Shown here piece after piece: positions 23,879 to 64,000 of a DNA stretch of 64,000 bases (its first letter is position 1; the number at the start of each line of letters is the position of its first letter). The notes below the pieces were generated by a model. It was not told the DNA's origin. It made no database searches and was given only the letters and a program-made list of their open reading frames with translations. This DNA comes from Escherichia coli (lineage in GTDB: Bacteria; Pseudomonadota; Gammaproteobacteria; Enterobacterales; Enterobacteriaceae), in assembly GCF_003334785.1 (NCBI RefSeq), contig NZ_QOWV01000008.1, one strand, 5' to 3'. The translations under genes and the position numbers were made by a program.

Positions 23879-24225
23879 AATAAATAGCTGACTTATGGAT
23901 GTGCTGGGGATTCTATGTATTTAGCACCGGGTTTGCCATTACTTTTCCTTTTTTTGACTTAATTAGCCTCTGTTTGAGCTGATCTGCCGCTAGATCTTCA
24001 TTTTTTTTGTATTTTTATGCGATTCATTGAATTTCAGCCAGGATTGCAGCTTTACATCGACAATATCTGGATTCTCGAGTATGCAAAATTTTATCTCTAT
24101 GATTTTTATAATTAAAACATATTTTGTGTATAAAAATCATTCGGGTCGGATTGCTGCGAAAGAAATGATACACTAGCGCGTCAAAGTAAGTGCGTTATCA
24201 GTATTCGGGTAGCTGTTGAGCCTGG

Positions 24226-24237
24226 GGCGGTAGCGTG
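24226..24237 (+). promoter_or_regulatory. ops element (RfaH recruitment site) in JUMPstart leader of the waaQ operon
   Basis: Exact GGCGGTAGCGTG in the long leader, about 85 bp upstream of waaQ. Confidence 0.7.
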
Positions 24238-24320
24238 CTTTTTTCTGCTTAACTTAACCAGACAATCACACAAAAGAGTCGCTAGTGGAAAAGCCATTTC
24301 GAAAAATCCTGGTCATAAAG

Positions 24321-25355
24321 ATGCGATATCACGGAGATATGTTATTAACTACTCCTGTAATCAGTACACTCAAGCAGAATTATCCCGACGCAAAAATCGA
24401 TATGCTGCTTTACCAGGATACAATTCCGATTTTATCTGAAAACCCAGAAATTAATGCACTCTATGGTATAAGCAATAAAGGTACGGGAACATTCGATAAA
24501 ATTAAAAATGCACTTTCACTGATAAAAACTCTGCGTGCGAATAATTACGACCTGGTCATTAATCTTACGGATCAGTGGATGGTGGCCCTGCTGGTACGTT
24601 GTTTACCTGCTCGTATGAAAATATCGCAGCTTTATGGTCATCGGCAGCATGGCATTTGGAAAAAAAGCTTTACACACTTAGCGCCTATACACGGTACACA
24701 TATTGTTGAGCGTAATTTGTCGGTCCTTGAGCCATTAGGTATTACCGATTTTTATACTGAAACAACCATGAGTTACGCCGAGGATTGCTGGAAGAAAATG
24801 CGCCAGGAATTAGATGCACTGGGCGTGAAAGATCATTATGTCGTCATCCAGCCGACAGCCAGACAGATATTTAAGTGCTGGGACAACGATAAATTTTCTA
24901 TGGTTATCGATGCGTTGCAACATCGTGGTTATCAGGTTGTGCTGACTTGTGGCCCTTCGGCAGATGATCTCGCTTGCGTAGATGAAATTGCACGAGGCTG
25001 CCAAACAAAACCTATTACCGGCCTTGCCGGTAAAACACGTTTTCCTGAACTGGGCGCATTAATTGATCATGCAGTGCTCTTTATTGGTGTGGATTCTGCG
25101 CCGGGGCATATTGCAGCGGCTGTGAAGACGCCAGTTATTAGCCTGTTTGGGGCCACTGATCATGTATTCTGGCGTCCATGGACCGAGAATATTATTCAGT
25201 TCTGGGCGGGGAATTATCAAAAAATGCCTACCCGGCACGAACTTGACCGCAACAAAAAATATCTTTCTGTTATTCCAGCGGAAGATGTCATTGCCGCTAC
25301 GGAAAAGCTGTTGCCAGAAGATGCACCTTCAGCTGACAGGAATGCGCAATTATGA
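24321..25355 (+). CDS. waaQ: LPS core heptosyltransferase III
   Basis: GT9-like protein; start at MRYHGDML (344 aa); an upstream in-frame GTG at 24285 is possible. Confidence 0.8.
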   Translation: MRYHGDMLLTTPVISTLKQNYPDAKIDMLLYQDTIPILSENPEINALYGISNKGTGTFDKIKNALSLIKTLRANNYDLVINLTDQWMVALLVRCLPARMKISQLYGHRQHGIWKKSFTHLAPIHGTHIVERNLSVLEPLGITDFYTETTMSYAEDCWKKMRQELDALGVKDHYVVIQPTARQIFKCWDNDKFSMVIDALQHRGYQVVLTCGPSADDLACVDEIARGCQTKPITGLAGKTRFPELGALIDHAVLFIGVDSAPGHIAAAVKTPVISLFGATDHVFWRPWTENIIQFWAGNYQKMPTRHELDRNKKYLSVIPAEDVIAATEKLLPEDAPSADRNAQL

Positions 25356-26476
25356 TCGTGGCATTTTGCTTATATAAATATTTTCCATTTGGTGGGCTAC
25401 AGCGTGACTTTATGCGTATTGCCTCAACAGTTGCCGCACGGGGCCACCATGTTCGGGTATATACACAGTCGTGGGAAGGCGATTGCCCGGAAGCATTTGA
25501 GCTTATTCGCGTACCGGTTAAATCCCATACTAACCATGGACGTAATGCAGAATATTATGCCTGGGTTCAAAACCATCTGAAGGCACATCCCGCTGATCGC
25601 GTTGTTGGCTTTAATAAGATGCCTGGGCTGGATGTTTATTTTGCCGCCGATGTCTGTTATGCCGAGAAAGTGGCGCAAGAAAAGGGATTTTTCTATCGTT
25701 TAACATCGCGCTATCGCCATTATGCTGCATTCGAGCGAGCGACTTTCGAACATGGTAAATCGACGAAACTTATGATGTTGACCGATAAGCAAATCGCCGA
25801 TTTTCAGAAGCATTACCAAACTGAACCAGAACGTTTTCAAATTCTTCCCCCTGGTATCTATCCTGACAGAAAATACAACGCGCAAATCCCAAACAGTCGT
25901 GAAATTTATCGCCAGAAAAATGGCATCACTGAACAACAAAACTTATTGCTGCAGGTTGGTTCAGATTTTGGTCGTAAAGGTGTGGATCGCTCAATTGAAG
26001 CTTTGGCATCGTTACCAGAATCGTTACGCCATAATACGTTGTTGTTTGTTGTTGGCCAGGATAAACCGCGTAAATTTGAAGTGCTGGCAGAAAAACTCGG
26101 TGTGCGTAGTAAAGTGCATTTCTTTTCCGGGCGGAATGATGTGTCTGAATTAATGGCAGCCGCTGATTTATTAATGCATCCCGCTTATCAGGAGGCTGCA
26201 GGTATTGTTCTCCTTGAGGCAATTGCCGCGGGATTACCTGTGTTGACGACTGCGGTATGCGGATACGCACACTATATCACAGATGCTAATTGTGGAACGG
26301 TCATCGCTGAACCTTTCTCCCAGGAACAATTAAATGACGTTTTACGTAAAGCGTTAACTCAATCTCCATTGCGCATGGCCTGGGCGGAGAATGCTCGGTA
26401 TTACGCCGATACTCAGGATTTATACAGCCTGCCGGAGAAAGCGGCAGATATCATTACAGGTGGTTTAGATGGTTGA
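25352..26476 (+). CDS. waaG: LPS core glucosyltransferase I (GT4)
   Basis: 374 aa [20 protein letters not shown]...; ATGA overlap with waaQ stop. Confidence 0.9.
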
Positions 26477-27266
26477 ATTAGAAGAGCCACTTGCCACACT
26501 CTGGCGTGGTAAAGATGCCTTTGCAGAAGTTAAAAAACTGAATGGCGAGGTCTTCCGTGAACTGGAGACGCGTCGCACATTACGCTTTGAACTGGCCGGC
26601 AAAAGTTATTTCCTCAAATGGCACAAAGGGACGACCCTAAAGGAGATTATAAAAAATCTGCTCTCATTGCGGATGCCCGTTTTAGGTGCAGACAGAGAGT
26701 GGCACGCTATTCATCGACTGCATGATGTCGGTGTTGATACGATGCACGGAATAGGATTTGGTGAAAAAGGGTTAAATCCATTAACTCGCACATCATTTAT
26801 TATTACCGAAGATCTCACTCCCACAATTAGCCTTGAAGATTATTGTGCAGATTGGGCGGTCAACCCGCCTGATGTACATATTAAGCGTATGCTGATCGCG
26901 CGTGTGGCAACCATGGTGCGCAAAATGCATGCAGCAGGGATTAATCACCGTGATTGTTATATCTGCCACTTTTTACTCCATTTGCCATTTACTGGCCGGG
27001 AAGATGAATTAAAAATTTCGGTTATCGATCTGCACCGGGCACAGATACGTGCAAAAGTACCACGTCGTTGGCGGGATAAAGATTTGATTGGTTTATATTT
27101 CTCATCAATGAATATTGGTCTGACGCAGAGAGATATCTGGCGATTTATGAAGGTTTATTTTGGGATGCCTTTACGCGATATTTATAGACTTGAGATTGAT
27201 TTACTTAAAAAGGCAAGGATTAAAGCAGGAAAAATAGAAGCAAGAACAATAAGAAAAAACTTGTAA
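26469..27266 (+). CDS. waaP: LPS core heptose(I) kinase
   Basis: 265 aa; kinase-like [13 protein letters not shown]. Confidence 0.9.
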
Positions 27267-27298
27267 ATAGTATTTTATTACAAAAAGGGATTCTAAAA

Positions 27299-28279
27299 TT
27301 GTTGAAATATAGAAACTTCGTTGCTAAGAAGAAAAATTTATACCAAAACGAAGTGTCGTATGTTAAAAATTTACATATTGCACTATGCTTTGACCGTGAA
27401 TTCATAATGCCAGCGGGTGTTGCATTATATTCAATTATATCCAACAATAGACATATTAACCTTCATTTTCACCTTCTTATATCAGGCATAGAAGAAAAGG
27501 AGTGTTCAGCTTTTTACGAACTAGAAGGTCCTAATACATCAATATCTGTATATTATATAACTGATAAATTTGACATTAATCCGGATACATTAGTTCTTGG
27601 TATTCCTTTATCAACATGTTTACGTTTTTTAATCCCAGAAGTTATTGATGATAAAATAAATAAGATACTTTATCTTGACTGTGATGTCATATGTAATGGT
27701 CCTTTAGATGAACTGGTTGATTATAATTTAAATGCTGATATTGCATGTGTAATTCCAGATTCGCCAGAAATGCAAGAACGTGTAAAAAAATTAGACTATG
27801 GCATTGAGTTTATTAATTATTTTAATGCCGGGGTTATGTTTATTAATACCAGCGAATGGAAAAAAAATAATATAACACAAAAAGCGTTAGAAATGATCAA
27901 CAGTGGAAAAGTATATAGGTATGCAGATCAGGATGTGCTCAATATTTTACTTAATGGACGAGTGCATTACCTTGATAAGAAGTACAATAATAAGACAACA
28001 TTGTCAGTACGATGTGATGAAGAACAAAAAAACTTGCCCAACACAATTATAATGCATTATGTTACCCAGAATAAACCATGGTACAAAATATTTAGAGCAC
28101 AAAATTTTGATCATTATTTTTCAAATTCTCCTTGGAAGAACCATAAAAGAAATCTAGCTCCATCATCAAGTGAGATTAGGTTAAAGTCTAAAGTTTTTTG
28201 GCTAGAAGGAAAATATTGTAAAGCCATTTCTTATTATTATAAGTATTTACTTGTTAAATTATTTGGCTTAAAGATTTAG
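27299..28279 (+). CDS. GT8-family (retaining) glycosyltransferase at the waaS position of the core operon
   Basis: 326 aa; LDCDVICNG (DxD) and HYVTQNKPW motifs shared with waaO/waaJ paralogs; symbol left blank because only position, not sequence, suggests waaS. Confidence 0.55.
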   Translation: MLKYRNFVAKKKNLYQNEVSYVKNLHIALCFDREFIMPAGVALYSIISNNRHINLHFHLLISGIEEKECSAFYELEGPNTSISVYYITDKFDINPDTLVLGIPLSTCLRFLIPEVIDDKINKILYLDCDVICNGPLDELVDYNLNADIACVIPDSPEMQERVKKLDYGIEFINYFNAGVMFINTSEWKKNNITQKALEMINSGKVYRYADQDVLNILLNGRVHYLDKKYNNKTTLSVRCDEEQKNLPNTIIMHYVTQNKPWYKIFRAQNFDHYFSNSPWKNHKRNLAPSSSEIRLKSKVFWLEGKYCKAISYYYKYLLVKLFGLKI

Positions 28280-28292
28280 CTGGAATGAAATT

Positions 28293-29372
28293 ATGAAAAT
28301 AGCCTTTATTGGCGAAGCTGTTTCTGGATTTGGCGGCATGGAAACAGTCATTCGTGATGTTATTACTACCTTCAGGCAACAACATATCCAAAGTGAAATT
28401 TTTTTCTTTTGTCGTAATGACAAAATGGATAAGGGATGGCTGGAAGGTATTAAGTACTCGTGTTCATTTTCCAATATTCGCTTAGGTTTTTTGCGTCGCG
28501 CGAAACATATTCATGCTTTAAGCAAATGGCTTCATGATTATCAGCCAGATGTTGTTATTTGTATTGACGTGATCTCGTGTTTGTATGCGGCCAAAGCTCG
28601 TAAAAAATCGGGGATTGATGTACCTGTATTTTCATGGCCGCATTTTTCTTTAGATCATAAAAAACATGCCGAATATATCACCTGTGCCGACTATCATTTA
28701 GCCATCAGCTCTGGTATTAAACAGCAAATGATTAGCCGGGGTGTACCAGAATCGACAATAAACGTTATTTTTAATCCCGTTGAGGCGAAAAATTCAGTCA
28801 TTCCTGCACCCGGGGAAGGCGAAACGGCAACATTCATTTATGTTGGGCGCATGAAATTTGAAGGCCAAAAGCGCGTAAAAGATCTGCTTGATGGCTTATC
28901 ACAAGTGCAAGGTGACTGGAAACTTCATGTATTGGGAGATGGCTCCGATTTCGAAAAATGCCAGGCTTATGGTAGAGGATTAAATATTGATGATCGAATT
29001 GTCTGGTATGGTTGGCAACAACATCCCTGGAAATTAGTTCAGCAAGATATTAAAAAAGTGAGTGCATTATTACTCACGTCATCTTTTGAAGGTTTCCCAA
29101 TGACTCTACTTGAAGCCTTGTCGTGGGGGATCCCTTGTATCAGTGCAGATTGTGTCTCCGGGCCTGTTGATATCATTCAGCCTGATGTTAATGGTCATTT
29201 ATATCAACCGGGGGATATGACCGGTTTTGTTGCTCTTCTCAATAAATACATAGCCGGTGAAATTCACATCGCACATGAAAAAATTCCGGCGTCGATCGAT
29301 AAATTTTATCAACCGAAATATTACGACAGATTGCAAAAGATAATTATTTCTGTTATTTCCCGGAGGAAATAA
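28293..29372 (+). CDS. waaB: LPS core alpha-1,6-galactosyltransferase (GT4)
   Basis: 359 aa MKIAFIGEAVSGFGGMETVI...; E-x7-E motif. Confidence 0.85.
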   Translation: MKIAFIGEAVSGFGGMETVIRDVITTFRQQHIQSEIFFFCRNDKMDKGWLEGIKYSCSFSNIRLGFLRRAKHIHALSKWLHDYQPDVVICIDVISCLYAAKARKKSGIDVPVFSWPHFSLDHKKHAEYITCADYHLAISSGIKQQMISRGVPESTINVIFNPVEAKNSVIPAPGEGETATFIYVGRMKFEGQKRVKDLLDGLSQVQGDWKLHVLGDGSDFEKCQAYGRGLNIDDRIVWYGWQQHPWKLVQQDIKKVSALLLTSSFEGFPMTLLEALSWGIPCISADCVSGPVDIIQPDVNGHLYQPGDMTGFVALLNKYIAGEIHIAHEKIPASIDKFYQPKYYDRLQKIIISVISRRK

Positions 29373-30391
29373 TGCAGCAGGTTTTTTTCCAGGAGACTGA
29401 GTTTCTCAATTCGGTTATTGATTATAATCATAAAATAGAAGCAGAAAATCTTTGTCTGGATATTGCTTATGGGACTGACAAAAATTTTCTTTTTGGATGC
29501 GGAATATCGATTGCTTCAATATTAAAATATAATGAAGGAAATCAATTATGCTTTCATATTTTTACTGATTATTTCGGTGATGACGATCGCAAATATTTTG
29601 ATGCCCTGGCCAGGCAATATAAAACAAGAATTAAGATATATTTAATTAATGGTGATCGACTCCGTTCATTACCCTGCACCAAGAACTGGACTCATGCTAT
29701 TTATTTTCGTTTTGTTATCGCCGATTACTTTTTTAATAAAGCACCCAAAGTTCTTTATCTGGATGCAGATATTATTTGTCAGGGAACTATAGAACCACTT
29801 ATCAATTACACGTTTTCTGAACATACAGTCGCAATGGTTGTTACAGAAGGACAAAAAGACTGGTGGGCAAAACGTGCTCATTCGTTAGGTGTTGCTGGGA
29901 TTGCTAATGGTTACTTTAACTCCGGTTTTTTACTGATTAATACTAATCAATGGACGAATGAGCGGGTTTCTGCACGGGCCATTGCAATGTTAAGTGATCC
30001 AGAGATAGTCAAAAAAATAACACATCCTGATCAGGATGTATTAAATATGTTATTGGCAGACAAACTTGTTTATGCTGATATTAAATATAACACTCAGTTT
30101 AGTTTAAATTATCAACTAAAAGAAAGTTTTAAAAACCCAGTAACTAACGATACAGTTTTTATTCATTATATTGGTCCAACTAAACCCTGGCATGACTGGG
30201 CCTGGGATTATCCAATATCACAAGCTTTTATGGCGGCAAAAAATGCTTCACCATGGAAGGATACTGCGTTATTGAAACCGGTTAATAGTAATCAATTAAG
30301 ATACAGTGCTAAACATATGTTGAAAAAAAAGCAATATATCAAAGGATTTGGCAACTATCTTTTGTATTTTATAAAAAAGCTAAAGCATTAA
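29372..30391 (+). CDS. waaO: LPS core alpha-1,3-glucosyltransferase (GT8)
   Basis: 339 aa; LDADIICQG DxD and HYIGPTKPW motifs. Confidence 0.8.
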   Translation: MQQVFFQETEFLNSVIDYNHKIEAENLCLDIAYGTDKNFLFGCGISIASILKYNEGNQLCFHIFTDYFGDDDRKYFDALARQYKTRIKIYLINGDRLRSLPCTKNWTHAIYFRFVIADYFFNKAPKVLYLDADIICQGTIEPLINYTFSEHTVAMVVTEGQKDWWAKRAHSLGVAGIANGYFNSGFLLINTNQWTNERVSARAIAMLSDPEIVKKITHPDQDVLNMLLADKLVYADIKYNTQFSLNYQLKESFKNPVTNDTVFIHYIGPTKPWHDWAWDYPISQAFMAAKNASPWKDTALLKPVNSNQLRYSAKHMLKKKQYIKGFGNYLLYFIKKLKH

Positions 30392-30554
30392 TACTGATAA
30401 TCTATACTCTAAATAATTCGAGTTGCAGGACAAAAAGCCAGTGGCGTTTTGAGGAACGCTTGCGTTGGCCCTGAAATGCCGAGTAACTCGCCGATGCAGC
30501 ACATGCAACTTGAAGTATAACGAGTATATAAAGTAATGATATAAGGATAGCCTT

Positions 30555-31571
30555 GTGAACTCATTTCCTGCCATAGAGATAGATAAAGTTAAAGCCTGGG
30601 ATTTTAGGCTTATTGATGAAAATACTGCTGAAAGTTTAAATGTTGCCTATGGTGTCGATTCCAATTATCTTGATGGTGTAGGTGTTTCCATTACTTCAAT
30701 TGTCATTAATAATCGACATGTTAATCTTGATTTTTATATTATTGCTGATGTTTATAACGACGATTTCTTTCAAAAAGTTGAGAAACTTGCTGAGCAATAC
30801 CAATTAAGAATCACACTTTATAGAATAAATACTGATAATCTTCAGTGCCTGCCTTGTACACAAGTCTGGTCAAGAGCAATGTACTTCCGTTTATTTGCTT
30901 TTCAATTATTGGGAGTAACACTTAATCGTTTGCTTTATCTTGATGCCGATGTAGTTTGTAAGGGAAATATTAGTCAACTATTGCATTTAGAGTTTAATGG
31001 AGCGGTGGCTGCAGTAGTCAGGGATGTAGACCCAATGCAGGAAAAGGCGGTAGTCAGATTATCTGATCCTGAACTTCGGGGGCAGTATTTTAATTCTGGT
31101 GTCGTTTACTTAGACCTAAAAAAATGGACAGAAGCAAAACTAACCGAAAAAGCACTGTCTATTCTTATGAGTAAAGATAGTATTTATAAGTATCCTGACC
31201 AGGACGTTATGAATGTCCTACTAAAAGGGATGACAATATTCCTGCCACGTGAGTTCAATACTATATATACAATAAAAAGTGAGTTAAAAGATAAAACGCA
31301 TCAAAAATATAAAGAGTTGATAAAAGAGGATACTCTTCTTATTCATTATACTGGGGCCACCAAGCCGTGGCACAAATGGGCAATTTATCCATCGGTAAAA
31401 TACTATAAAATAGCTTTAGAAAGATCCCCCTGGAAAGATGACTCACCACGAGATGCAAAATCAATTATTGAATTCAAAAAAAGATATAAACATCTGTTAG
31501 TGCAACATCATTATATCTCAGGACTCATTGCAGGAGTGTGTTATCTTTGCCGAAAATATTACCGTAAATAA
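30555..31571 (+). CDS. waaJ: LPS core alpha-1,2-glucosyltransferase (GT8; WaaJ/WaaR)
   Basis: 338 aa; GTG start; LDADVVCKG and HYTGATKPW motifs. Confidence 0.8.
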   Translation: MNSFPAIEIDKVKAWDFRLIDENTAESLNVAYGVDSNYLDGVGVSITSIVINNRHVNLDFYIIADVYNDDFFQKVEKLAEQYQLRITLYRINTDNLQCLPCTQVWSRAMYFRLFAFQLLGVTLNRLLYLDADVVCKGNISQLLHLEFNGAVAAVVRDVDPMQEKAVVRLSDPELRGQYFNSGVVYLDLKKWTEAKLTEKALSILMSKDSIYKYPDQDVMNVLLKGMTIFLPREFNTIYTIKSELKDKTHQKYKELIKEDTLLIHYTGATKPWHKWAIYPSVKYYKIALERSPWKDDSPRDAKSIIEFKKRYKHLLVQHHYISGLIAGVCYLCRKYYRK

Positions 31572-31588
31572 CATTTAACTGGTTTAAC

Positions 31589-32287
31589 ATGATTCAGAAG
31601 AATAAAATCAAAGATTTAGTTGTTTTTACCGATGAAAATAACTCAAAGTATCTCAATGTATTAAATGACTTTCTTTCTTATGATATTAATATCATCAAAG
31701 TTTTTCGTTCTATAGATGATACAAAAGTCATGCTTATTGATACCGATTACGGTAAATTGATACTTAAAGTTTTTTCGCCTAAAGTAAAACGCAACGAACG
31801 TTTCTTTAAATCTCTTTTAAAGGGAGATTATTATGAACGCCTTTTTGAGCATACTCAAAAAGTGCGTAACGAGGGGCTACATTCTCTCAATGATTTTTAT
31901 TTGTTGGCAGAACGGAAAACATTACGTTTTGTCCATACTTATATCATGCTTATCGAATATATCGATGGCGTAGAGTTGTGTGATATCCCCGATATTGATG
32001 AAACTTTAAAAAATAAAATTCAACAATCAATTCGTTCATTACACGAACACGGTATGGTATCTGGTGATCCTCACCGCGGTAATTTTATTATTGAAAATGG
32101 TGAAGTACGCATTATTGATCTTTCAGGAAAACGGGCATCTGCACAACGTAAAGCGAAAGATCGTATTGATTTAGAGCGACATTATGGTATTAAGAATGAG
32201 GTTAAAGATCTCGGTTATTATCTTTTAGTTTATCGTAAAAAAATACGTAATCTTATGCGGCGTTTGAAAGGGAAGCCAGCACGATAA
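31589..32287 (+). CDS. waaY: LPS core heptose(II) kinase
   Basis: 232 aa MIQKNKIKDLVVFTDENNSKY... Confidence 0.85.
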   Translation: MIQKNKIKDLVVFTDENNSKYLNVLNDFLSYDINIIKVFRSIDDTKVMLIDTDYGKLILKVFSPKVKRNERFFKSLLKGDYYERLFEHTQKVRNEGLHSLNDFYLLAERKTLRFVHTYIMLIEYIDGVELCDIPDIDETLKNKIQQSIRSLHEHGMVSGDPHRGNFIIENGEVRIIDLSGKRASAQRKAKDRIDLERHYGIKNEVKDLGYYLLVYRKKIRNLMRRLKGKPAR

Positions 32288-32358
32288 AGTAAAAGTCTTA
32301 CATTTAAACGTCTTCGTCAGGACATTTCTATGCGGAGTTCTTATTTCACAGGTTTATC

Positions 32359-33168
32359 ATGAAGAATATTAGATACATTGACAAAAAAGATGTTGAAAAC
32401 CTGATAGAAAGTAAAACGTCTGATGATGTTATTATTTTTCTTTCCGGCCCCACATCGCAAAAAACACCATTGTCAGTGCTGCAGACAAGGGATGTTATTG
32501 CTGTCAATGGTTCTGCACAATATCTATTAAGTCATAATATTATTCCCTATATTTATGTACTTACCGATGTTCGCTTTTTACATCAACGGCGTGATGATTT
32601 TTATAAATTTAGCCAGAGAAGTCGTTATACCATCGTAAATGTTGACGTTTATGAACATGCTTCTGAAGAAGATAAGCGGTACATCCTTCAAAACTGCCTG
32701 GTACTACGTTCATTTTACCGCAGAGAAAAAGGTGGATTGATCAAGAAGATCAAGTTTAATATTTTGAGCCGAATTCATAAAGAGCTCCTGATCTCTGTAC
32801 CTTTTTCTAAAAAAGGTCGTCTGGTTGGCTTTTGCAAGGATATTAACCTCGGTTATTGTTCATGCCATACCGTTGCTTTTGCTGCAATCCAAATAGCCTA
32901 TTCGCTGAAGTATGCTCGTATTATCTGTTCAGGCCTTGATTTAACGGGTAGCTGTTCGCGTTTCTATGATGAAGATAAGAATCCTATGCCCTCAGAGTTG
33001 ATTCGGGATTTATTCAAAATTTTACCATTTTTCCGTTTTATGCGTGAAAATATAGAAGATATCAATATTTATAATTTATCCGACGATACTGCAATTCAAT
33101 ATGATATTATTCCCTATATGAAAATATCCGAAATTGAAGAGCCGTGTGTTTATGAAAAAATAAGCTAA
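32359..33168 (+). CDS. waaZ: LPS core biosynthesis protein WaaZ
   Basis: 269 aa maximum (in-frame stop at 32305 prevents a longer N-terminus). Confidence 0.75.
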   Translation: MKNIRYIDKKDVENLIESKTSDDVIIFLSGPTSQKTPLSVLQTRDVIAVNGSAQYLLSHNIIPYIYVLTDVRFLHQRRDDFYKFSQRSRYTIVNVDVYEHASEEDKRYILQNCLVLRSFYRREKGGLIKKIKFNILSRIHKELLISVPFSKKGRLVGFCKDINLGYCSCHTVAFAAIQIAYSLKYARIICSGLDLTGSCSRFYDEDKNPMPSELIRDLFKILPFFRFMRENIEDINIYNLSDDTAIQYDIIPYMKISEIEEPCVYEKIS

Positions 33169-33220
33169 TATTTTATATGTGTTTATTACGTGTTATAAAT
33201 TATATTGGAGTTGGCTAATA

Positions 33221-34363
33221 ATGATTAAAAAAATAATATTTACCGTCACACCAATATTTTCTATACCGCCAAAAGGAGCTGCAGCGGTTGAAACATGGAT
33301 TTATCAGGTCGCAAAAAGACTTTCGATTCCAGTAACTATCGCCTGTATTCGAAACGAAGGTTACCCAACCTACACAAAAGTAAATGATCACTGTGATATT
33401 CACTACATTGGTTTTAGTCGAGTCTATAAACGACTTTTCCAAAAGTGGACTCGACTTGATCCTGTGCCATATTCTCAGCGTATTTTAAATACCCAACCTA
33501 AAAACACTGATCCGAAAGACTCTGTTATTGTTATCCACAATAGCATGAAGCTGTATAAACAGATTCGTAGCAGAAGCCCTCACGCGCAGCTAGTTATGCA
33601 TCTTCATAATGCTTTCGAGCCAGGTGAGTTAGACAAAAATGCAAAGATAATTGTTCCTAGCCAGTTTCTTTTCGATTTCTATTCGGAAAAAATGCCTGAT
33701 GCAAATATTGCTATTGTGCCTAATGGTTTTTGTTCTGAATCGTATGAACAAAATAATACTGAAGATTTGAGGCAGAAACTGAACATTGATGCAAATGATA
33801 CCGTGTTATTATTTGCAGGAAGGATATCACCAGATAAAGGTTGCCTGATGCTTATGGAGGCTTTTAATCAGCTGAATAAGATACAAGATAACCTCAAACT
33901 GGTGATTGTCGGAGATCCTTTTGCCAGTAAAAAAGGCGAAAAAGCTGAATATCAGAAAAAAGTTCTGGATGCAGCGAAAGCTATTGGAGCGCAATGCATT
34001 ATGGCGGGTGGACAGCCTCCAGAGCAGATGCATAACTATTACCGTTTAGCAGATTTAGTTGTTGTTCCTTCTCAGGTAGAAGAAGCTTTTTGTATGGTAG
34101 CTGTTGAAGCGATGGCGGCAGGTAAACCAGTGCTTGCCAGTCAAAAAGGTGGAATTAGTGAGTTTGTTCTGGAAGGAATTACAGGCTATCACCTTGCAGA
34201 GCCTATGACATCTGAAAGTATTCTCGCGGATATTAAGCGCGTTTTGGCGGATGCTGACAGAGCTCAAATTGCTAAAAATGCCCGAAATTTTGTTTTCTCA
34301 AAATATAGCTGGGAACATGTTACTCAGCGTTTTGAAGCACAAATACAAGACTGGTTTGGTTAA
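33221..34363 (+). CDS. waaK: LPS outer-core GT4 glycosyltransferase, WaaK-like
   Basis: About 380 aa from MIKKIIFTVTP; E-x7-E motif; an upstream ATG at 33179 is possible. Confidence 0.7.
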   Translation: MIKKIIFTVTPIFSIPPKGAAAVETWIYQVAKRLSIPVTIACIRNEGYPTYTKVNDHCDIHYIGFSRVYKRLFQKWTRLDPVPYSQRILNTQPKNTDPKDSVIVIHNSMKLYKQIRSRSPHAQLVMHLHNAFEPGELDKNAKIIVPSQFLFDFYSEKMPDANIAIVPNGFCSESYEQNNTEDLRQKLNIDANDTVLLFAGRISPDKGCLMLMEAFNQLNKIQDNLKLVIVGDPFASKKGEKAEYQKKVLDAAKAIGAQCIMAGGQPPEQMHNYYRLADLVVVPSQVEEAFCMVAVEAMAAGKPVLASQKGGISEFVLEGITGYHLAEPMTSESILADIKRVLADADRAQIAKNARNFVFSKYSWEHVTQRFEAQIQDWFG

Positions 34364-34382
34364 AAATTATTGGATTTGAAGA

Positions 34383-34418
34383 GCCTGCCTGAACTTAATG
34401 TCAGGCAGGCTTTTTTTT
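34383..34418. terminator. Bidirectional terminator between convergent waaK and waaL
   Basis: 11-bp perfect stem gcctgcctga / tcaggcaggc followed by T8; waaL stop codon lies inside the T tract. Confidence 0.6.
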
Positions 34419-35634
34419 ATTTATTCCGCATTGCTAACAGTAAACCAACAATCAAGCCAATTGGTTTGAGATCAACTTCCTCGAAGTTACCTCGAATAAT
34501 ATAAAAGCTTACAAGCGTTAAAAATAGTAGTAATTGACCATTATAAGGAGTGACGACAACTGTTTTAAACGTTGCATTAGCTGTCTCTTTGATAATAGAG
34601 CCATACAGATAAAGTAAAGCGAGTAGTCCAGCCAAACCCGCTGCAAACCAAATTGACAAAACAACGTTGTGTGGCCCAATGGATTGCCTGAACTTCCATG
34701 ACGGAAAATCTACAACACGCTTATTATATATTGCATGGTAAATATCATCGCCGTAGCCATATCCCTTAAGAGGATTTTCCATAATTAATGTCCACGCCGT
34801 ACCTTGAGTACCATTGGTATAGCGATAAGAACTGTCGGTCTGTTGAAGTTTATAAATAAGCCTGTCTTTACCAGCATGATCACCTTTATAGGTAAATACA
34901 CCCACTGCGGCAACAGAAATAACGATGGAAGTCAGCATCAATAATTTCCACTGACGATTTAAGATTAACCATAGCAGAGTCACTATGAATACTGCCAGCC
35001 ATGCACCACGAGACAGCGTTCCTAATAGCAGAAATAAGAAAACTGCACTAAAAATTACGAATGCTATTTTATAAGAGGTTTTCTTGATAAGCCAAAGGTT
35101 TAATAATGCTGGAAACAGAAACACCATTGAATCGGAAATACTACGGTGTTCATAGGTGGAAAATGGCATTATTCCTTTATTATAATCCTGAATATAAAGA
35201 ATAAGTTCAACAAGACAACGTAAGCCAAGTCCGGTAACTAATGAGTATAGTACAATTTTACCAATGCTTTCATTATCTTCATCTTTTAATAATGCAGGTA
35301 TAAGTAAACTATAGGCCAAAAATCCTTTAAGTACCGTATTACTGAATTCTTTAAAACTGATTTTCAGATCAGGTGATATAAAAGTAGCATATAAAAGAAT
35401 GAGTGATAGTGCCAGGACACTATAAAAAAGATTATTTTTATAGAGTACTTTAAATGTTCCCGGAGCACGAGAAACTTGATAGATTACCGTAATAATCATT
35501 AGTATAGATATGATGTGTTTATAACGGGTTATACCATCAAGGAAAAAGGTTGCAATAAAGAGGAATACCAACGCTTTATTCCAGTACGGTTTCCACTTTT
35601 CTTTATTACGTAGCGCCAGCGAGGCTGTTAACAT
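34417..35634 (-). CDS. waaL: O-antigen ligase
   Basis: 405 aa polytopic membrane protein starting MLTASLALRNKEKWKPYWNKALVF. Confidence 0.85.
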   Translation of the reverse strand: MLTASLALRNKEKWKPYWNKALVFLFIATFFLDGITRYKHIISILMIITVIYQVSRAPGTFKVLYKNNLFYSVLALSLILLYATFISPDLKISFKEFSNTVLKGFLAYSLLIPALLKDEDNESIGKIVLYSLVTGLGLRCLVELILYIQDYNKGIMPFSTYEHRSISDSMVFLFPALLNLWLIKKTSYKIAFVIFSAVFLFLLLGTLSRGAWLAVFIVTLLWLILNRQWKLLMLTSIVISVAAVGVFTYKGDHAGKDRLIYKLQQTDSSYRYTNGTQGTAWTLIMENPLKGYGYGDDIYHAIYNKRVVDFPSWKFRQSIGPHNVVLSIWFAAGLAGLLALLYLYGSIIKETANATFKTVVVTPYNGQLLLFLTLVSFYIIRGNFEEVDLKPIGLIVGLLLAMRNK

Positions 35635-35672
35635 TGCTTCTCCACCATCTTAAATAATATATAACGTATTAA

Positions 35673-36629
35673 TCAGGAATTGATTTTATTAAATACCGTT
35701 TCTGCAGTCAGATGAGCAAGATCTTTATCTGGTGCCCTACAAACCACCTGATTCTTCCCATATCCGCCAATTAATCCCGGATCGGTTGGTCCATAAACCG
35801 TGATATTCGGTCGATCCAGTGCTGCAGTTAAATGACTTAACCCAGTGTCTACCGATACCACGAATTTCGCTCCGGCCAGCACACGGGCAACACCTTCCAG
35901 ACTCATCTTCGGCAATACTTCAACATAAGCAAATCCTTCCGCCAGTCGTTTCGCCCGTTTTTCCTCATGCGGCGCACCCCACGGAAGTTTAATGCGAATC
36001 CCTGAATCTGCCAGTAAACCAATCAATTCTCGCCAGTGTTCTTCCGGCCAGTGTTTATCATCACGGGTCGTCGCATGAAGAAATACGGCATATTCGCCAG
36101 CATCTGTAGGCAGGTTCGTCAGAAAATGCTGTGCGATAGCATAATCGCCCTGGGTTTGCGGTTTGCTATAGCCCAGACTTTTGGCAAAAAGTTCGCGGAT
36201 GCGTTCTACGGCGTGCTGCTGTTTTGCAATATGATGTTTACGATTGTAAAACAGGCTGGCTAAAGGTTCGCGAGCGGTTTGCCAGTCCATTCCATGCTTT
36301 ACGCCATGCGCCAGACGCGTCACCAGCGCCGCGCTTTTTACCAGCCCCTGAGCATCGATAACTGCGTCATAGTTCTCTGCTTGTAGCGCTTCACGAAACG
36401 CTTTGCGTTCAGCTTTTATGGGGGCCGAGAACCAGGCTTTACGCCAGCGACGTATTGCCACAGGAATAACTCGCTCAACGGCGGCGTGCCAGGAAGGAAT
36501 CTGTGCGAACCCTTCTTCCACCACCCAGTCAAACTTAATCCCTGGGATTGCCTGCTGGGCATCAGTGAGTGCGGGCAACGTATGGAGAACATCGCCCATC
36601 GACGATGTTTTAACGATCAAAACCCGCAT
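35673..36629 (-). CDS. waaC: LPS heptosyltransferase I
   Basis: 318 aa MRVLIVKTSSMGDVLHTLPALTDA... Confidence 0.9.
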   Translation of the reverse strand: MRVLIVKTSSMGDVLHTLPALTDAQQAIPGIKFDWVVEEGFAQIPSWHAAVERVIPVAIRRWRKAWFSAPIKAERKAFREALQAENYDAVIDAQGLVKSAALVTRLAHGVKHGMDWQTAREPLASLFYNRKHHIAKQQHAVERIRELFAKSLGYSKPQTQGDYAIAQHFLTNLPTDAGEYAVFLHATTRDDKHWPEEHWRELIGLLADSGIRIKLPWGAPHEEKRAKRLAEGFAYVEVLPKMSLEGVARVLAGAKFVVSVDTGLSHLTAALDRPNITVYGPTDPGLIGGYGKNQVVCRAPDKDLAHLTAETVFNKINS

Positions 36630-36632
36630 CCG

Positions 36633-37679
36633 TCAGGCTTCCTCTTGTAACAATAGAGAGTTGAGTTCTTCCAGCACGCGCTGGGGAGTAATGTCGATCA
36701 AGCTCTGGTGATAACCTTCTGCGGCGTCGCCTTTGCGTACTTTGTGATAGCCGGTAATCAGGCGGATCACGCGCGCTTTATGGGATAGCGGCGGTGTGAA
36801 GTCCGGGCTACTCGGACCATACAGGGCAACCAGCGGACGATTGAGCGCCGCCGCAACGTGCATCAGGCCAGAATCGTTAGTGACAATGGCTTTACAGGCT
36901 GCAATCAGGATAACCGCTTGATCAAGCTGTGTTTCCCCCGCCAGGTTCCGGCACCATGCCTGCTGCTCGGTATTTAAAGCGGCAAGAATCTCATTGCCCG
37001 CTTCATGATCTTTCGCCGAGCCAAACAGAACCACTTGATAACCTTCATCAATCAGTTGCTTTGCCAGTTCCGCATAGTGGTAGTGTGGCCAGCGTTTTGC
37101 CGGACCAAACTCCGCACCCGGGCAAAAACCAATCATTGGACGTTCTGATGAAAGCGAAAATTGATTACAGGTATATGATTTTTCACCTTCGCTCACCTGC
37201 AACTGCGGCCATAACAATGGCTGCGGCAGATCTTGTGCGGTACGCATAATACCTTTGTCATAGGCCAGCGCCACATAGCGTTCCACCATCAGCGGCCAGG
37301 CTTCTTTATCCAGCACACGCACATCGTTGAGTAAACCGTAGCGCATTTCGCCGCGCCAGCCGGTGCGATGAGGAATACCCGCGAAGAAAGGCACTAATGC
37401 GGATTTGAAGGAGTTGGGTAAAACGTAGGCGCGGTCGTAACGTTTTTCGCGCAGGCTATGACCCAGCTTGCGGCGTTCGCCAATTTCCAGCGCCCCGTGA
37501 CCAAGCGGCATAGGAATGGCTTCGTTAACTTCCGGCATCCGCGATAATAATGGACGGCACCATGCCGGTGCCATCACGTCGATTATCGCCTGGGGATAGC
37601 GCGCCTGGAGCGTGCGATAGAGACTTTGCGACATCATCATGTCGCCAACCCATGACGGGCCGATCACCAATATTTTCAT
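36633..37679 (-). CDS. waaF: LPS heptosyltransferase II
   Basis: 348 aa MKILVIGPSWVGDMMMSQSLYRTL... Confidence 0.9.
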   Translation of the reverse strand: MKILVIGPSWVGDMMMSQSLYRTLQARYPQAIIDVMAPAWCRPLLSRMPEVNEAIPMPLGHGALEIGERRKLGHSLREKRYDRAYVLPNSFKSALVPFFAGIPHRTGWRGEMRYGLLNDVRVLDKEAWPLMVERYVALAYDKGIMRTAQDLPQPLLWPQLQVSEGEKSYTCNQFSLSSERPMIGFCPGAEFGPAKRWPHYHYAELAKQLIDEGYQVVLFGSAKDHEAGNEILAALNTEQQAWCRNLAGETQLDQAVILIAACKAIVTNDSGLMHVAAALNRPLVALYGPSSPDFTPPLSHKARVIRLITGYHKVRKGDAAEGYHQSLIDITPQRVLEELNSLLLQEEA

Positions 37680-37687
37680 TCACTTCA

Positions 37688-37806
37688 TCCTTCAAGCTGT
37701 CTCTGCGGCGGCTGCCTGCGTTCACTCCGGTCACTTACTTTTGTAAGCTCCCGGAGATTCACTTAGTTGCTGCCTTGATACCGCTCGAATGATTTTGTGA
37801 ATTTAC
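37688..37806. repeat. ERIC/IRU-like intergenic repeat between hldD and waaF
   Basis: Core GTGAATCTCCGGGAGCTTACAAAAGTAAGTGACCGGAGTGAACG (minus strand, 37719-37762) closely resembles the ERIC central inverted repeat as I recall it. Confidence 0.55.
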
Positions 37807-38739
37807 GTTGATGTCGCGATTCAGCCAGGCCATGTATTCCGTTACGCCTTCGGCAACGGTTTTGAACGGTTTGTCATAACCCGCCGCGCGCAGATTCGTC
37901 AGATCTGCCTGCGTGAATGCCTGATAGCGGCCTTTCAGTTTATCCGGGAACGGAATGTATTCGATCTGGCCTTTCTTGTGATAAGCAAGCGTTGCATCGG
38001 CTACCGCCTGGAAGGATTCCGCACGACCAGTACCGAGGTTGAAGATGCCGGAAACGCCATTTTCCAGGAACCACAGGTTTACATCTGCCACGTCGCCAAC
38101 ATAGACGAAGTCGCGTTTAAAGTTCTCGCTACCTTCGAACAGCTTCGGTGATTCACCGTTATTAAGCTGGGTGTTGAGATGGAAAGCGACGCTCGCCATG
38201 CTGCCTTTATGGCCTTCACGCGGTCCATAAACGTTGAAATAACGGAAGCCAACAATCTGTGAGTTTGCTTCCGGCAGAATTTGACGAACATATTCATCAA
38301 ACAGGAATTTCGAGTAACCGTAGACGTTCAACGGTTTTTCGTACTCGCGGGATTCAATAAAGTCGGAAGTGCGACCGCCGTAAGTGGCTGCGGATGAAGC
38401 GTACAGGAACGGGATTTCACGCTCCAGGCAGTAGTGCAGCAGCTCCTTGGAGTATTGATAGTTGTTATCCATCATATACTTGCCGTCCCACTCGGTGGTG
38501 GAAGAGCACGCGCCTTCGTGGAAAATCGCTTCGACATCGCCGAACTCTTCGCCAGCCATAATCTGGATCAGGAAGTCTTCCTTATCCATATAGTCTGCGA
38601 TATTCAGGTCCACCAGGTTCACAAACTTGGTGCCGTCTTTCAGGTTGTCCACCACCAGAATATCGGTGATGCCTTTGTCATTCAGGGCTTTAACGATGTT
38701 GCTGCCGATAAAGCCCGCGCCGCCGGTAACGATGATCAT
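37759..38739 (-). CDS. hldD: ADP-L-glycero-D-manno-heptose-6-epimerase with variant C-terminus
   Basis: Rossmann GGAGFIGS; ORF is 326 aa and ends ...[23 protein letters not shown] instead of the ...AWLNRDA end I recall. Confidence 0.9.
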
Positions 38740-38952
38740 AACTGTAACCTTCGAATTGTGGAGTCAGAGACAATCTCAGACACGAATACTTCTATCATAT
38801 CACTACACGGCGCTGGCTACAGCCATTCACCGAAAGTGGTATGCCTGAGCGTGATTTATGCTTATTTTTTGACAAGTACAAATGCTTCATCTCGTATCAA
38901 CCTATGGCTTTCGGTAATATGTGCTGAAATTTGCCCAGTCTGGAGAATCGCG

Positions 38953-61261: not shown

Positions 61262-61823
61262 GGGGGAGGGGGGAGATTATGGAACTTTGCTCCTTGTAAG
61301 GACTAATTATTTTTGCATATTACTTCATTAGCTGCGATGATTTTTCTTTAATATTCATTATGTTAATAAGTTCTGGATGAGTGTGCTCTCATTGGATTTT
61401 TTATCCGTCTTGTTCTGCCGCAGGATGAGACTATACATCGTCGAGATCGCAATGATGATATGAGTTGTTCCTCCTGCGACGGCTCTAATCAAAAAAGAGC
61501 AGGAGTGCTTTTCCATCTATTGCGATGATGGCTTTATTATCTGAAGGATGACAGTCACATTTAAAAAATATTTAATCTATAGATCACAATGTAGGGTCAT
61601 GGAATATATGTATACAACTATTTTCTTCTTCACTTTTAATTATCGTATTCATTATAAAACTAAGTTAAAAAAACTCCTGGAGAGTGAGTTATTAATATAT
61701 TTTTAAATAAAATTAAGTTATCATTCATCGATGCACTTTATAGAATCATCAATGGCCATAATAGTACTATTAACTCTCAATTTTATATTTTTATCATCAC
61801 TACAAATATTAACTGAATTTATA

Positions 61824-62242
61824 TCAATGATTTTTTTTATTCTTATCTTTTATTTTATTTACTGTTTCAATGCAATCAGCGGCAAGTTGGAGTGGATTTA
61901 GATTTTTCAGATATGGTCTTATGATCTTTCCCTTACTTAATAAATAGCATGTATAGGATTCGGAAAGTCCAGCATCTATTTTGTACCTCCTTATATTAGA
62001 TAAGGATGTGAGAAATTCCTTGTTATCATTCGCAGCCATATATGCCAGTCCGAGTTCAGCCTCTGCGGCCTTACAGGCAAAATAGCTTAGTGAACACGCT
62101 TTTCGTCCCTCTTTAGTACTGGCTGATATTAGTGCCCATAATATTGCTTTGTCTGCCAAATCTAACTCTCTCTGAAATTGTCTTGCAGTAACTGCACTCG
62201 CAGAAATAGAGAAAAAAATACAATTGTTAATAACCTTGCCAT
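61824..62242 (-). pseudogene. Secreted Sel1-like repeat protein (putative Rhs immunity-type), apparently frameshifted in a homopolymer
   Basis: ATG at 62242 opens MARLLTIVFF then stops after 26 codons; the 111-aa Sel1-like body (61824-62159) is in the frame 2 downstream; one extra A in the A7 run at 62212-62218 would restore a signal peptide plus body. Confidence 0.5.
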
Positions 62243-62541
62243 ATTTTTTAGTCCGTAACTGTTAATGTGCTATCTGGCTCTGAAAATATTAACTCATTTA
62301 ATTTTTGCATGTCATTAGATAAACCAGTTATACAACCCTCGGAACAGAATCGAGGTCCTAAAGACGGACCAAAAGCGTTTAAACAACTATGTATTGAAAA
62401 TCCATTGCGATTATAAGTTCCTGTATTAACTGACGGTACTAATCGTATGCCGTCAGGTTTTCTATTGCTTGCTCCCGGGTCATTAACATTCCAACTCCAT
62501 AGGCCTTGAGGTATTGGCCATCTATTTATAAATGTGTACAA

Positions 62542-62860
62542 CGGGGATTATTTTTACATTGCATATTATTACCAGAAGCGACTGGAATACTAAGCACATC
62601 ATAAAAATTATCATCACATGGTATATCTGAAACACACGAAAGCATACCTAAAGTTATGCTGTATAAACAGGTGGCTAATCCCAAGGGGATCGATTCCAGA
62701 AATCGGGTTCAACGGATACTGATAAAAATTCCACCTACCTTCCAGCCCAATCGGAGCCTGAGTGTTATACCGCCCCTGCTGCGGTTAATGTTACCGATAA
62801 TAGTTATAGTACAGCCCTGATTCATCATCATACTACTGCTGCGGCAGTCTGATGAACTAT
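62542..62860 (-). pseudogene. Degenerate Rhs core-end remnant with short tip
   Basis: Minus-strand translation gives [43 protein letters not shown], a stop-riddled copy of the Rhs core C-terminus. Confidence 0.5.
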
Positions 62861-62865
62861 TGCTT

Positions 62866-63327
62866 TTACGGATTCTCCTTATTCTTCCTTCTATCCATTC
62901 GCTTTAGCTTTTTGAGCTCTTGAAGTTTGCTCTTTGCATCAATATTACCGTTATTTACAGCGAATTCCATCCAATAAATAGCTCTATTCAAATTATAATA
63001 TTCTGATAATGTTGGATTTGTATCTGATAAAAAGACCCCATAATTAAACTGCGCTGTAACATTCCCCTGAGATGCTGATCTTTCCAAGAATCGCAATTGT
63101 TTGTAAATGTTATTTTTAGTAAAGCAGTAATATTGATATAGTCGAAATGATGCCTCTGAATCACCATGTTGTGATTTATACTTCAGTTTCATCAACTTTT
63201 CTTCACTTAAATCATAGGTCATTGCTGTAGACCCCATCATACTTTCGTTTTGTTTTATTTTCACATCAGCACCATGCAATTGACAAATAAAAGAGAAATA
63301 AAAAAATAGTAACAAGCATGCTTTCAT
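62866..63327 (-). CDS. yibG: Sel1-like repeat protein with signal peptide, YibG-like; putative immunity partner of the upstream Rhs tip
   Basis: 153 aa; N-terminal MKACLLLFFYFSFICQLHGA; starts 11 bp after the Rhs tip stop. Confidence 0.6.
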   Translation of the reverse strand: MKACLLLFFYFSFICQLHGADVKIKQNESMMGSTAMTYDLSEEKLMKLKYKSQHGDSEASFRLYQYYCFTKNNIYKQLRFLERSASQGNVTAQFNYGVFLSDTNPTLSEYYNLNRAIYWMEFAVNNGNIDAKSKLQELKKLKRMDRRKNKENP

Positions 63328-63338
63328 ACATCTACAAC

Positions 63339-64000
63339 CTATCTTATATCACTGGGTTTTTCTGGCGTACCTTGCATATTAGAAATGGGGTGCCCAGATG
63401 GCCCATATGTTATCCAATTACCAAGGTCTTTTGTTGTTATAGCCATTAGATCCTTATTTGAATTAAGGTTCGTTGGTGCTGTTAGCACTGTATCCATTTT
63501 TAACTTACCATTAGTTCCTCGCCCCCACCACGTCCATAGCGTGTCAGGTCCTATTACATTTGTATGTAACTCTTTAGCTAATTGGCTAGCAAATGAATTT
63601 TGTCCTTTACCTGTATTACAAGAAAATAACCAAACTGTCATCCCATCTTTATAATTCCCATCAAATTTAATTAGATATGCTAGATCTTTAGCTGTCATGA
63701 TACTGCGCGTTGCGGATTCAATAGATGTGGGGGTACCATGCCCCCCGATTGTGAAAACGCCTGGGATATTAATCTCATCAGCTACAGAATGGATAAGATC
63801 ACTTTCGGGGTATAAATTTATATCAACCAAACCTTGCGGATCTACATTTATGACCGGATTCAACGGATACTGATAAAAATTCCATCCCCCCTTCAGCCCA
63901 ATCGGATCCTGAGTGATATACCGCCCCTGCAGCGGGTCATAATAGCGGTGGCGGTTGTAATACAGGCCGGACTCCTCATCATACTGCTGCCCCGGCAGGC
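63339..64000 (-). CDS. Rhs-family protein C-terminal region (core end plus variable toxin tip), 5' end beyond the window; YibJ-like orphan
   Basis: Minus-strand translation of 63864-64000 gives ...[48 protein letters not shown] in frame with the 174-aa tip. Confidence 0.7.

Follow-up and report, generated by a model that had tools for sequence, protein, structure and literature searches.

We analysed a 64,000-nucleotide stretch of DNA from Escherichia coli (contig NZ_QOWV01000008.1 of assembly GCF_003334785.1; the window), in which a block of genes for the lipopolysaccharide core was found. Almost certainly, this block is the waa (rfa) locus in its standard chromosomal form, from an E. coli strain whose core is of type R2. 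Positions 24200-35700 (11,501 bases) were compared by megablast with 5,426 complete E. coli genomes. Strain H3 was 100% identical across all 11,501 bases, and the locus was at least 99% identical in 480 of the genomes (about 9%), which come from varied, unrelated hosts and countries. At least 80% of the 11.5-kb query was covered in 501 genomes. In the LPSTyper paper of 2025, R2 is defined by a waaZ/waaK primer pair that gives a 610-bp product (PMC13293308). Both R2 primers match the window with 0 mismatches, at 32705-32725 on the plus strand and at 33294-33314 on the minus strand, and the predicted product is 610 bp, as published. None of the primer pairs for R1, R3, R4 and K-12 has a match in the window, where K12-F shows six mismatches or more. 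The identity to H3, the near identity in 480 genomes and the exact match of the R2 primers together indicate that this is the canonical R2 locus.

Gene content agrees with this assignment. The R2-specific genes are wabA, waaK and waaL (PMC13293308), and all three are found at the expected places. The slot between waaP and waaB holds wabA, which encodes a glycosyltransferase of family 8 (GT8), and not waaS; waaK lies directly 3' of waaZ; and WaaL is of the R2/Salmonella type, not of the K-12/R1/R4 type. The genes for the tri-glucose backbone and its galactose (Gal) branch, waaB, waaO, waaR/J, waaY and waaZ, are K-12-like. K-12 WaaS, WaaU and WaaL gave no tblastn match anywhere in the window, which does not carry the waaU and K-12 waaL of the K-12 core type. 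Among the complete genomes, the GT8 gene is present in 503 and waaK-waaL in 501, and 481 of them have at least 99% identity over the 2.4 kb that takes in waaK and waaL. The exact protein sequences of WaaK, WaaL, WaaZ and the GT8 protein were each found on 1,000 contigs or more, and those of WaaK and WaaL bear names used by the Whitfield laboratory. The RefSeq gene list of the identical H3 locus is the same as that of the window and includes 'glycosyltransferase family 8 protein' and 'O-antigen ligase RfaL'; the waaK counterpart is called 'lipopolysaccharide N-acetylglucosaminyltransferase'. The prototype R2 strain is F632 (Heinrichs, Monteiro, Perry and Whitfield 1998, J Biol Chem 273:8849), and its locus is presumably GenBank AF019375. 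ECOR11 and ROAR375 serve as the R2 references in PMC13293308.

Three points weigh against this assignment or what is drawn from it. The assignment comes from typing primers, gene content, names of proteins and published work, so that the comparison with F632 is indirect. The R2 core structure would hold for the window by way of its genes and the literature. In addition, the literature search found no tested function for the GT8 gene. The locus is already known, as R2, its hybrid character and its recombinants with K-12 have all been published, and current understanding is unchanged by it. The core type decides which O antigens can be ligated and influences recognition by phages, amoebae and antibodies. 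Thus, typing the locus as R2 is useful routine information.

Base composition and descent of the locus

A first-pass annotation made from the letters alone had described the region from about 27300 to 35600 as more AT-rich than its flanks, and took this to be consistent with horizontal acquisition. The composition itself is beyond doubt. The guanine-plus-cytosine (GC) content of 27299-35634 was 0.354, compared with 0.441 in waaQGP and 0.516 in the remainder of the window (Mann-Whitney p = 3e-10 for 16 500-bp windows inside the block and 103 outside). The lowest-GC 8.3-kb stretch of the 64 kb begins at 27201, and the edges of the block are sharp, at ~27.3 kb and ~35.65 kb. At third codon positions, GC ranged from 0.24 to 0.34 within the block and from 0.46 to 0.62 in waaC, waaF and gmhD, whose overall GC was 0.50-0.54. 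A recent acquisition of the outer-core block from an AT-rich donor would fit the gap between 0.354 and 0.516, the low third-position values and the sharp edges. However, the equivalent blocks at the same chromosomal site have a like composition: GC was 0.332 in K-12, 0.330 in the K-12 type of a B2 strain, 0.352 in R1, 0.331 in R3, 0.352 in Escherichia albertii and 0.370 in Salmonella. As GC is low in every core type examined (0.33-0.37), low GC is an old, shared property of the locus across genera and nothing specific to this strain or to R2. The divergence of the alleles, described below, is also deep and under purifying selection, which argues against a recent arrival. A recent acquisition is therefore very unlikely, and the step from AT-richness to horizontal transfer stands only in a generic sense that applies to every core type examined.

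Comparison with K-12 showed where the R2 locus differs. Protein identities were 98% for WaaQ, 96% for WaaG, 91% for WaaP, 92% for WaaB, 88% for WaaO, 90% for WaaJ/R, 92% for WaaY and 89% for WaaZ (residues 1-259 only), so that eight outer-core and heptose-modifying proteins are 88-98% identical. Identity was 95% for WaaC and 99% for WaaF, and the range over waaC-waaF-gmhD was 95-100%. The abstract of the 1998 Heinrichs study reportedly counts 10 of 13 R2 products as K-12-like, which agrees with these eight together with WaaA and WaaC. No K-12 counterpart of the GT8 protein, WaaK or WaaL was found by protein comparison. The blastn alignment with K-12 breaks at four places. At 27176/28292 the GT8 gene takes the place of the K-12 waaS cassette; at 30406/30527 there is a 120-bp insertion on the window side only; the break at 33123/35730 takes in the 3' tail of waaZ, waaK, waaL and the 3' tail of waaC; and the break at 37682/37813 is a 130-bp insertion that separates waaF from gmhD. 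By sequence comparison, the locus differs from K-12 by two cassette swaps, in which waaS is replaced by the GT8 gene and waaZ tail-waaU-waaL by waaZ tail-waaK-waaL. Synonymous divergence (dS) from K-12 was 0.42-0.96 from waaQ to waaZ and 0.07-0.19 in waaA, waaC, waaF and gmhD; the ratio of nonsynonymous to synonymous divergence (dN/dS) was 0.02-0.13. With dS at 0.4-1.0 and a low dN/dS, the 'K-12-like' R2 genes are therefore very old alleles on which purifying selection acts, not recent K-12 DNA.

The first-pass annotation had called the block a hybrid. This holds as far as the K-12 gene order, the Salmonella-type right-hand end and the GT8 gene in place of waaS are concerned, but the hybrid is not new, as it is the known R2. 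R2 was published as a K-12/Salmonella hybrid by Heinrichs et al. (1998), to go by the title in reference 59 of PMC13293308, and R2 is regarded in the same way in PMC13293308 itself. The hybrid reading is therefore a textbook description of R2, not a discovery. The per-gene identities bear out a mixed content of K-12-type and Salmonella-type genes. The uniformly high identity to one known core-type locus that the annotation had named as evidence against a hybrid was indeed found in H3, in the 480 genomes and with the R2 primers.

A new, strain-specific hybrid formed by recent recombination between K-12-type E. coli and Salmonella loci would explain why K-12-like genes stand beside a WaaK and a WaaL that resemble only Salmonella-type proteins, and also the sharp alignment breaks at 27176/28292 and 33123/35730. 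We consider it very improbable. At 99% identity or more, the block is found in 480 complete genomes whose hosts and sources argue against one clone; it types as canonical R2, and its K-12-like genes stand at dS 0.4-1.0 from K-12. Amino-acid identity to Salmonella (loci L018 and L024) was 73% for WaaK and 66% for WaaL, and 62-63% for WaaB, 55-56% for WaaO/I, 58% for WaaJ, 67% for WaaY and 69-70% for WaaZ. WaaK and WaaL are within the range of their neighbours, and thus bear no mark of a recent import of waaK and waaL from Salmonella.

The two variable slots were compared across related enterobacteria. Two Salmonella loci (L024 and L028) are collinear with the window gene for gene and carry an orthologue of the GT8 gene, 63-64% identical, in the waaP-waaB slot. 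In a Citrobacter locus (L026), a GT8 gene stands together with a WaaU/WaaL end of K-12 type, whose two proteins are 60% and 59% identical to those of K-12. The Escherichia whittamii representative combines waaS with R2-type waaK and waaL, and its middle genes are nearly K-12. E. albertii has the GT8 gene with waaK and waaL, which is the full R2 layout. Salmonella enterica subsp. diarizonae has a third, unrelated open reading frame (ORF) in the slot, together with waaK and waaL. With the GT8 gene, waaS and this ORF, no fewer than three unrelated genes occupy the waaP-waaB slot across enterobacteria. Since all combinations of slot and end are seen across genera, the two variable slots appear to reassort independently. 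The gene sequences thus point to a locus that is a mosaic of old cassettes common to Escherichia, Salmonella and Citrobacter, rather than a recent import. The old R2 alleles and the same order in Salmonella at 55-86% identity argue against a recent transfer from Salmonella.

Recombinant loci between K-12 and R2 within E. coli were reported in 2025, and their waaK has ~90% nucleotide identity to R2 (PMC13293308). That the window is one of these rare K-12/R2 or R2/K-12 recombinants and not canonical R2 is hardly credible: such loci exist, and the E. whittamii representative has waaS with waaK and R2-type waaL, but both slots of the window hold the R2 version, waaS, waaU and K-12 waaL were not found in it, and its waaK-waaL is shared at 99% or more by 481 genomes.

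Two side observations concern these regions. The ORF in the S. enterica subsp. diarizonae slot (L018:4055-5008, ~313-317 aa) matched no NCBIfam family. The waaQ-G-P module (24285-27266) occurs in E. coli as two deeply diverged alleles. The window WaaQ has only 72-73% identity to that of R1, of R3 and of K-12-type strains of the B2 lineage, which is below its 78% identity to Salmonella WaaQ; nucleotide identity in the module drops to 66-80%.

The GT8 gene between waaP and waaB

The GT8 gene is named 'wabA' in PMC13293308, and in the literature this name was found only in that paper and its preprint. The encoded protein is 29-31% identical to WaaO and WaaJ. It scored 183.6 bits on the NCBIfam model for WaaO/I, under the cut-off of 461; it is a paralogue and not a second WaaO. 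The precomputed Pfam families of its protein cluster are PF01501 and PF08437. A DxD motif, DCD, is present at residues 127-129, with DQD at 210; DAD is found at nearly the same position in WaaO (residue 131) and WaaJ/R (residue 130). With a Glyco_transf_8 domain and the DxD motif, the protein belongs to the GT8 family. In the PDB, it matches LgtC, a retaining alpha-galactosyltransferase (E = 6e-17). Orthologues occupy the same slot in Salmonella and Citrobacter. We also considered that the gene could be a diverged waaS and rejected this, as the two have no similarity and K-12 WaaS is of the WaaS/CpsH family.

The outer-core sugars of R2 are three glucoses (Glc), one Gal and N-acetylglucosamine (GlcNAc) (PMC7504096, PMC9927288). 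All of these are explained by WaaG, WaaB, WaaO, WaaR and WaaK, and the GT8 protein may therefore add a non-stoichiometric alpha-hexose elsewhere. Its most likely role is that of a retaining alpha-hexosyltransferase for a non-stoichiometric decoration of the core. K-12 WaaS, in the corresponding slot, is a rhamnosyltransferase acting on 3-deoxy-D-manno-oct-2-ulosonic acid (Kdo) (PMC6358824). By analogy, the Kdo region is our best guess for the site at which the GT8 protein would act. Non-stoichiometric Gal on Kdo is said to occur in R2. If so, it would fit a GT8 galactosyltransferase, although PMC7504096, PMC3526765 and PMC6358824 gave no source for it.

These observations can be joined in one tentative proposal, to which we would give rather less than an even chance. 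The GT8 protein would be the counterpart of WaaS, an alpha-hexosyltransferase acting on the Kdo region in alternative R2 glycoforms, and the waaP-waaB slot and the waaK/waaU-waaL end would be two ancient cassettes that reassort independently across genera. R2 would then be the form that an ancestral Salmonella-like layout takes in Escherichia, and not a hybrid made by transfer. WabA is the one R2 enzyme without an assigned role; only this gene and the evidence for an ancient mosaic go beyond routine annotation.

Gene calls and proposed working of the locus

The features of the locus are listed in Table 1. The gene order waaQ-G-P-(GT8)-B-O-J-Y-Z-K, which the first-pass annotation had given as a K-12/R2 layout, agrees with the ORF list and the translations. 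RfaQ, RfaP, WaaB, WaaO, RfaY, WaaZ, the GlcNAc transferase and RfaL all exceeded their curated NCBIfam cut-offs. Two starts are open to choice: waaQ has an alternative in-frame ATG at 24321, where the first-pass annotation begins the block, 12 codons 3' of the GTG, that would give 344 aa, and WaaK is 380 aa from its ATG but 394 aa from an upstream GTG.

Table 1. Coordinates of the features of the R2 waa locus, in window positions
Feature	Position	Strand	Remarks
JUMPstart element with ops site (GGCGGTAGCGTG)	24199-24237	+	waaQ operon leader; Rfam RF01707
waaQ (heptosyltransferase III)	24285-25355	+	356 aa from GTG; NCBIfam RfaQ 680 bits, cut-off 467
waaG (GT4 glucosyltransferase I, adds GlcI)	25352-26476	+	374 aa; rfaG in RefSeq annotation of H3
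waaP (heptose I kinase)	26469-27266	+	265 aa; NCBIfam RfaP 459.8 bits, cut-off 170
GT8 glycosyltransferase gene ('wabA')	27299-28279	+	326 aa, TTG start; waaP-waaB slot
waaB (alpha-1,6-galactosyltransferase)	28293-29372	+	359 aa; NCBIfam 592.9 bits, cut-off 385
waaO (GT8, adds GlcII)	29372-30391	+	339 aa; NCBIfam 572.3 bits, cut-off 461
120-bp hairpin-forming repeat	30407-30526		waaO-waaJ/R spacer; from alignment breaks and fold
waaJ/waaR (GT8 alpha-1,2-glucosyltransferase, adds GlcIII)	30555-31571	+	338 aa; RefSeq name rfaJ
waaY (heptose II kinase)	31589-32287	+	232 aa; NCBIfam 394.5 bits, cut-off 248
waaZ (Kdo III transferase)	32359-33168	+	269 aa; NCBIfam 546.9 bits, cut-off 473, model length 269
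LPSTyper R2 typing amplicon	32705-33314		waaZ to waaK; 610 bp
Right-hand cassette relative to K-12	33124-35729		waaZ 3' tail, waaK, waaL, waaC 3' tail
waaK (GT4 alpha-1,2-N-acetylglucosaminyltransferase)	33221-34363	+	380 aa; NCBIfam 724.4 bits, cut-off 618
Intrinsic terminator hairpin	34378-34415	+	15-bp stem with 7 G-C pairs, then T-run; between convergent waaK and waaL
waaL (O-antigen ligase, R2/Salmonella type)	34417-35634	-	405 aa; NCBIfam RfaL 651.3 bits, cut-off 277, model length 404
waaC, waaF, gmhD (inner-core genes)	35673-38739	-	convergent gmhD operon ending in waaL

The leader of the waaQ operon contains a JUMPstart element that matched RF01707 at 53.1 bits (gathering score 35, E = 7.8e-10), and the match includes the ops site, at which RfaH loads. 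The operon thus has the leader of an RfaH-dependent (JUMPstart/ops) operon. In an Rfam scan of 21-40 kb, nothing besides JUMPstart was above threshold. Matches to istR, Leu-leader and V_AS5 in the same region were under their gathering scores and were treated as chance.

The enzyme roles that follow are those in the literature on K-12 and R2, applied to the genes of the window. The long waaQ operon would be read from the leader with the JUMPstart/ops site. RfaH, once loaded there, permits read-through of the AT-rich operon. Transcription would end at the hairpin terminator, which faces the convergent gmhD-waaF-waaC-waaL operon. WaaG is predicted to add GlcI onto heptose (Hep) II, WaaP and WaaY to phosphorylate HepI and HepII, respectively, and WaaQ to add HepIII. 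WaaB would attach the alpha-1,6-Gal branch, and WaaO and then WaaJ/R would add GlcII and GlcIII. WaaK would cap GlcIII with alpha-1,2-GlcNAc, a step that defines R2 and for which K-12 has the heptosyltransferase WaaU instead. In some glycoforms, WaaZ may add a third Kdo. The finished core would then receive O antigen from the matching R2/Salmonella-type WaaL.

The 120-bp element between waaO and waaJ/R has terminal inverted repeats, and 28 bp lie between it and the start of waaJ/R. Its fold is a long hairpin (-42.6 kcal/mol, z = -3.84), and it belongs to a repeat family with a median of ~3 places per E. coli genome. The element is missing from K-12, E. coli E69, E. albertii and E. whittamii, and the alignment breaks there in all four comparisons. 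The E. coli R2 locus typically carries it, and 479 genomes have at least 99% identity at this site. In K-12, the small RNA RybB represses WaaR synthesis (PMC6358824), and the insertion might therefore alter regulation of waaJ/R.

Further observations concern the neighbourhood of the locus. Between gmhD and waaF, a 130-bp repeat at 37683-37812 resembles enterobacterial repetitive intergenic consensus (ERIC) sequences, also called intergenic repeat units (IRU). It is missing from all other loci compared. It replaces the stop codon of gmhD and adds 16 codons (326 vs 310 aa). The ERIC1R primer, in what we take to be its sequence, has 3 mismatches at 37741-37762, and the weak V_AS5 match may reflect an ERIC-related repeat instead of chance. 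K-12 and the R3 strain RM9131 have the gene yibB (htrL) between gmhD and kbl. It is missing at 38740-38952 of the window, and also in the R1 strain UPEC132. A second AT-rich patch, with GC down to 0.27, lies at 61501-63500. In H3, its counterpart contains the end of an RHS core protein, yibG, an RHS fragment and a frameshifted immunity gene.

Comparison with known core types

R2-type variants also exist within E. coli. A diverged form is found in E69 (L009) and in 17-22 other complete genomes; compared with the window, the E69 GT8 protein is 79%, WaaK 94% and WaaL 95% identical. The GT8 gene has 90-95% nucleotide identity in 17 genomes, and waaK-waaL of O127:H6 has 91% nucleotide identity to the window. 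Short contigs that are labelled in a collection of species-representative genomes as a Flavihumibacter metagenome-assembled genome (MAG) and a Bacillota MAG (L007 and L008) encode a WaaK that is 100% identical to that of the window. This is most likely due to E. coli contamination of these bins.

The K-12 locus shares the chromosomal site, the operon layout and the JUMPstart leader with the window. It differs in having waaS (WaaS/CpsH family) in the slot of the GT8 gene, and waaU (heptosyltransferase IV, family GT9) where the window has waaK (GT4), and in being without the 120-bp repeat between waaO and waaJ/R. Protein lengths differ as well. WaaZ is 283 aa in K-12, with a longer and unrelated tail, and 269 aa in the window. 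WaaU is 357 aa, whereas WaaK is 380 aa, and WaaL is 419 aa in K-12 and 405 aa in the window, with no BLAST match between the two ligases. The first-pass annotation had reported a WaaZ of 269 aa, a WaaL of 405 aa and a terminal transferase of about 380 aa with a GT4 E-x7-E motif, lengths that it placed nearer to Salmonella/R2 than to K-12. The ORF calls confirm these lengths, and the motif lies at residues 288-296 of WaaK (EAFCMVAVE). The comparison with Salmonella also holds, since WaaZ, WaaK and WaaL of S. enterica subsp. diarizonae are 269, 381 and 404 aa. In structure, R2 has alpha-1,2-GlcNAc on hexose III, in place of the GlcNAc-Hep of K-12 (PMC9927288).

In the collinear Salmonella loci L024 and L028, WaaZ, WaaK and WaaL are likewise 269, 381 and 404 aa, but protein identity to the window is only 55-86%. 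The window WaaZ can be aligned at its tail with WaaZ of Salmonella and of E. albertii, which are likewise 269 aa long. WaaI, the Salmonella counterpart of WaaO, is described in the literature as a galactosyltransferase. The right-hand end of the R3 locus, as in the window, encodes a GlcNAc transferase of family GT4 and a ligase that resembles that of Salmonella. The R3 GlcNAc transferase gene, named waaD in PMC13293308, encodes a protein 57% identical to the window WaaK, and R3 WaaL is 51% identical to the window WaaL. R3 differs from the window in gene order and in being without waaB, waaZ and a GT8 slot gene. The K-12/R2 and R2/K-12 recombinants (PMC13293308) carry the same two exchangeable cassettes, one of each type, whereas the window is R2 at both. 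The R2 prototype locus of F632 has the same order, waaQ-G-P-wabA-B-O-R/J-Y-Z-K with waaL convergent, and the R2-specific waaK, waaL and wabA. In a comparison by primers, gene content, names and literature, rather than by direct alignment with F632, the window did not differ from this prototype.

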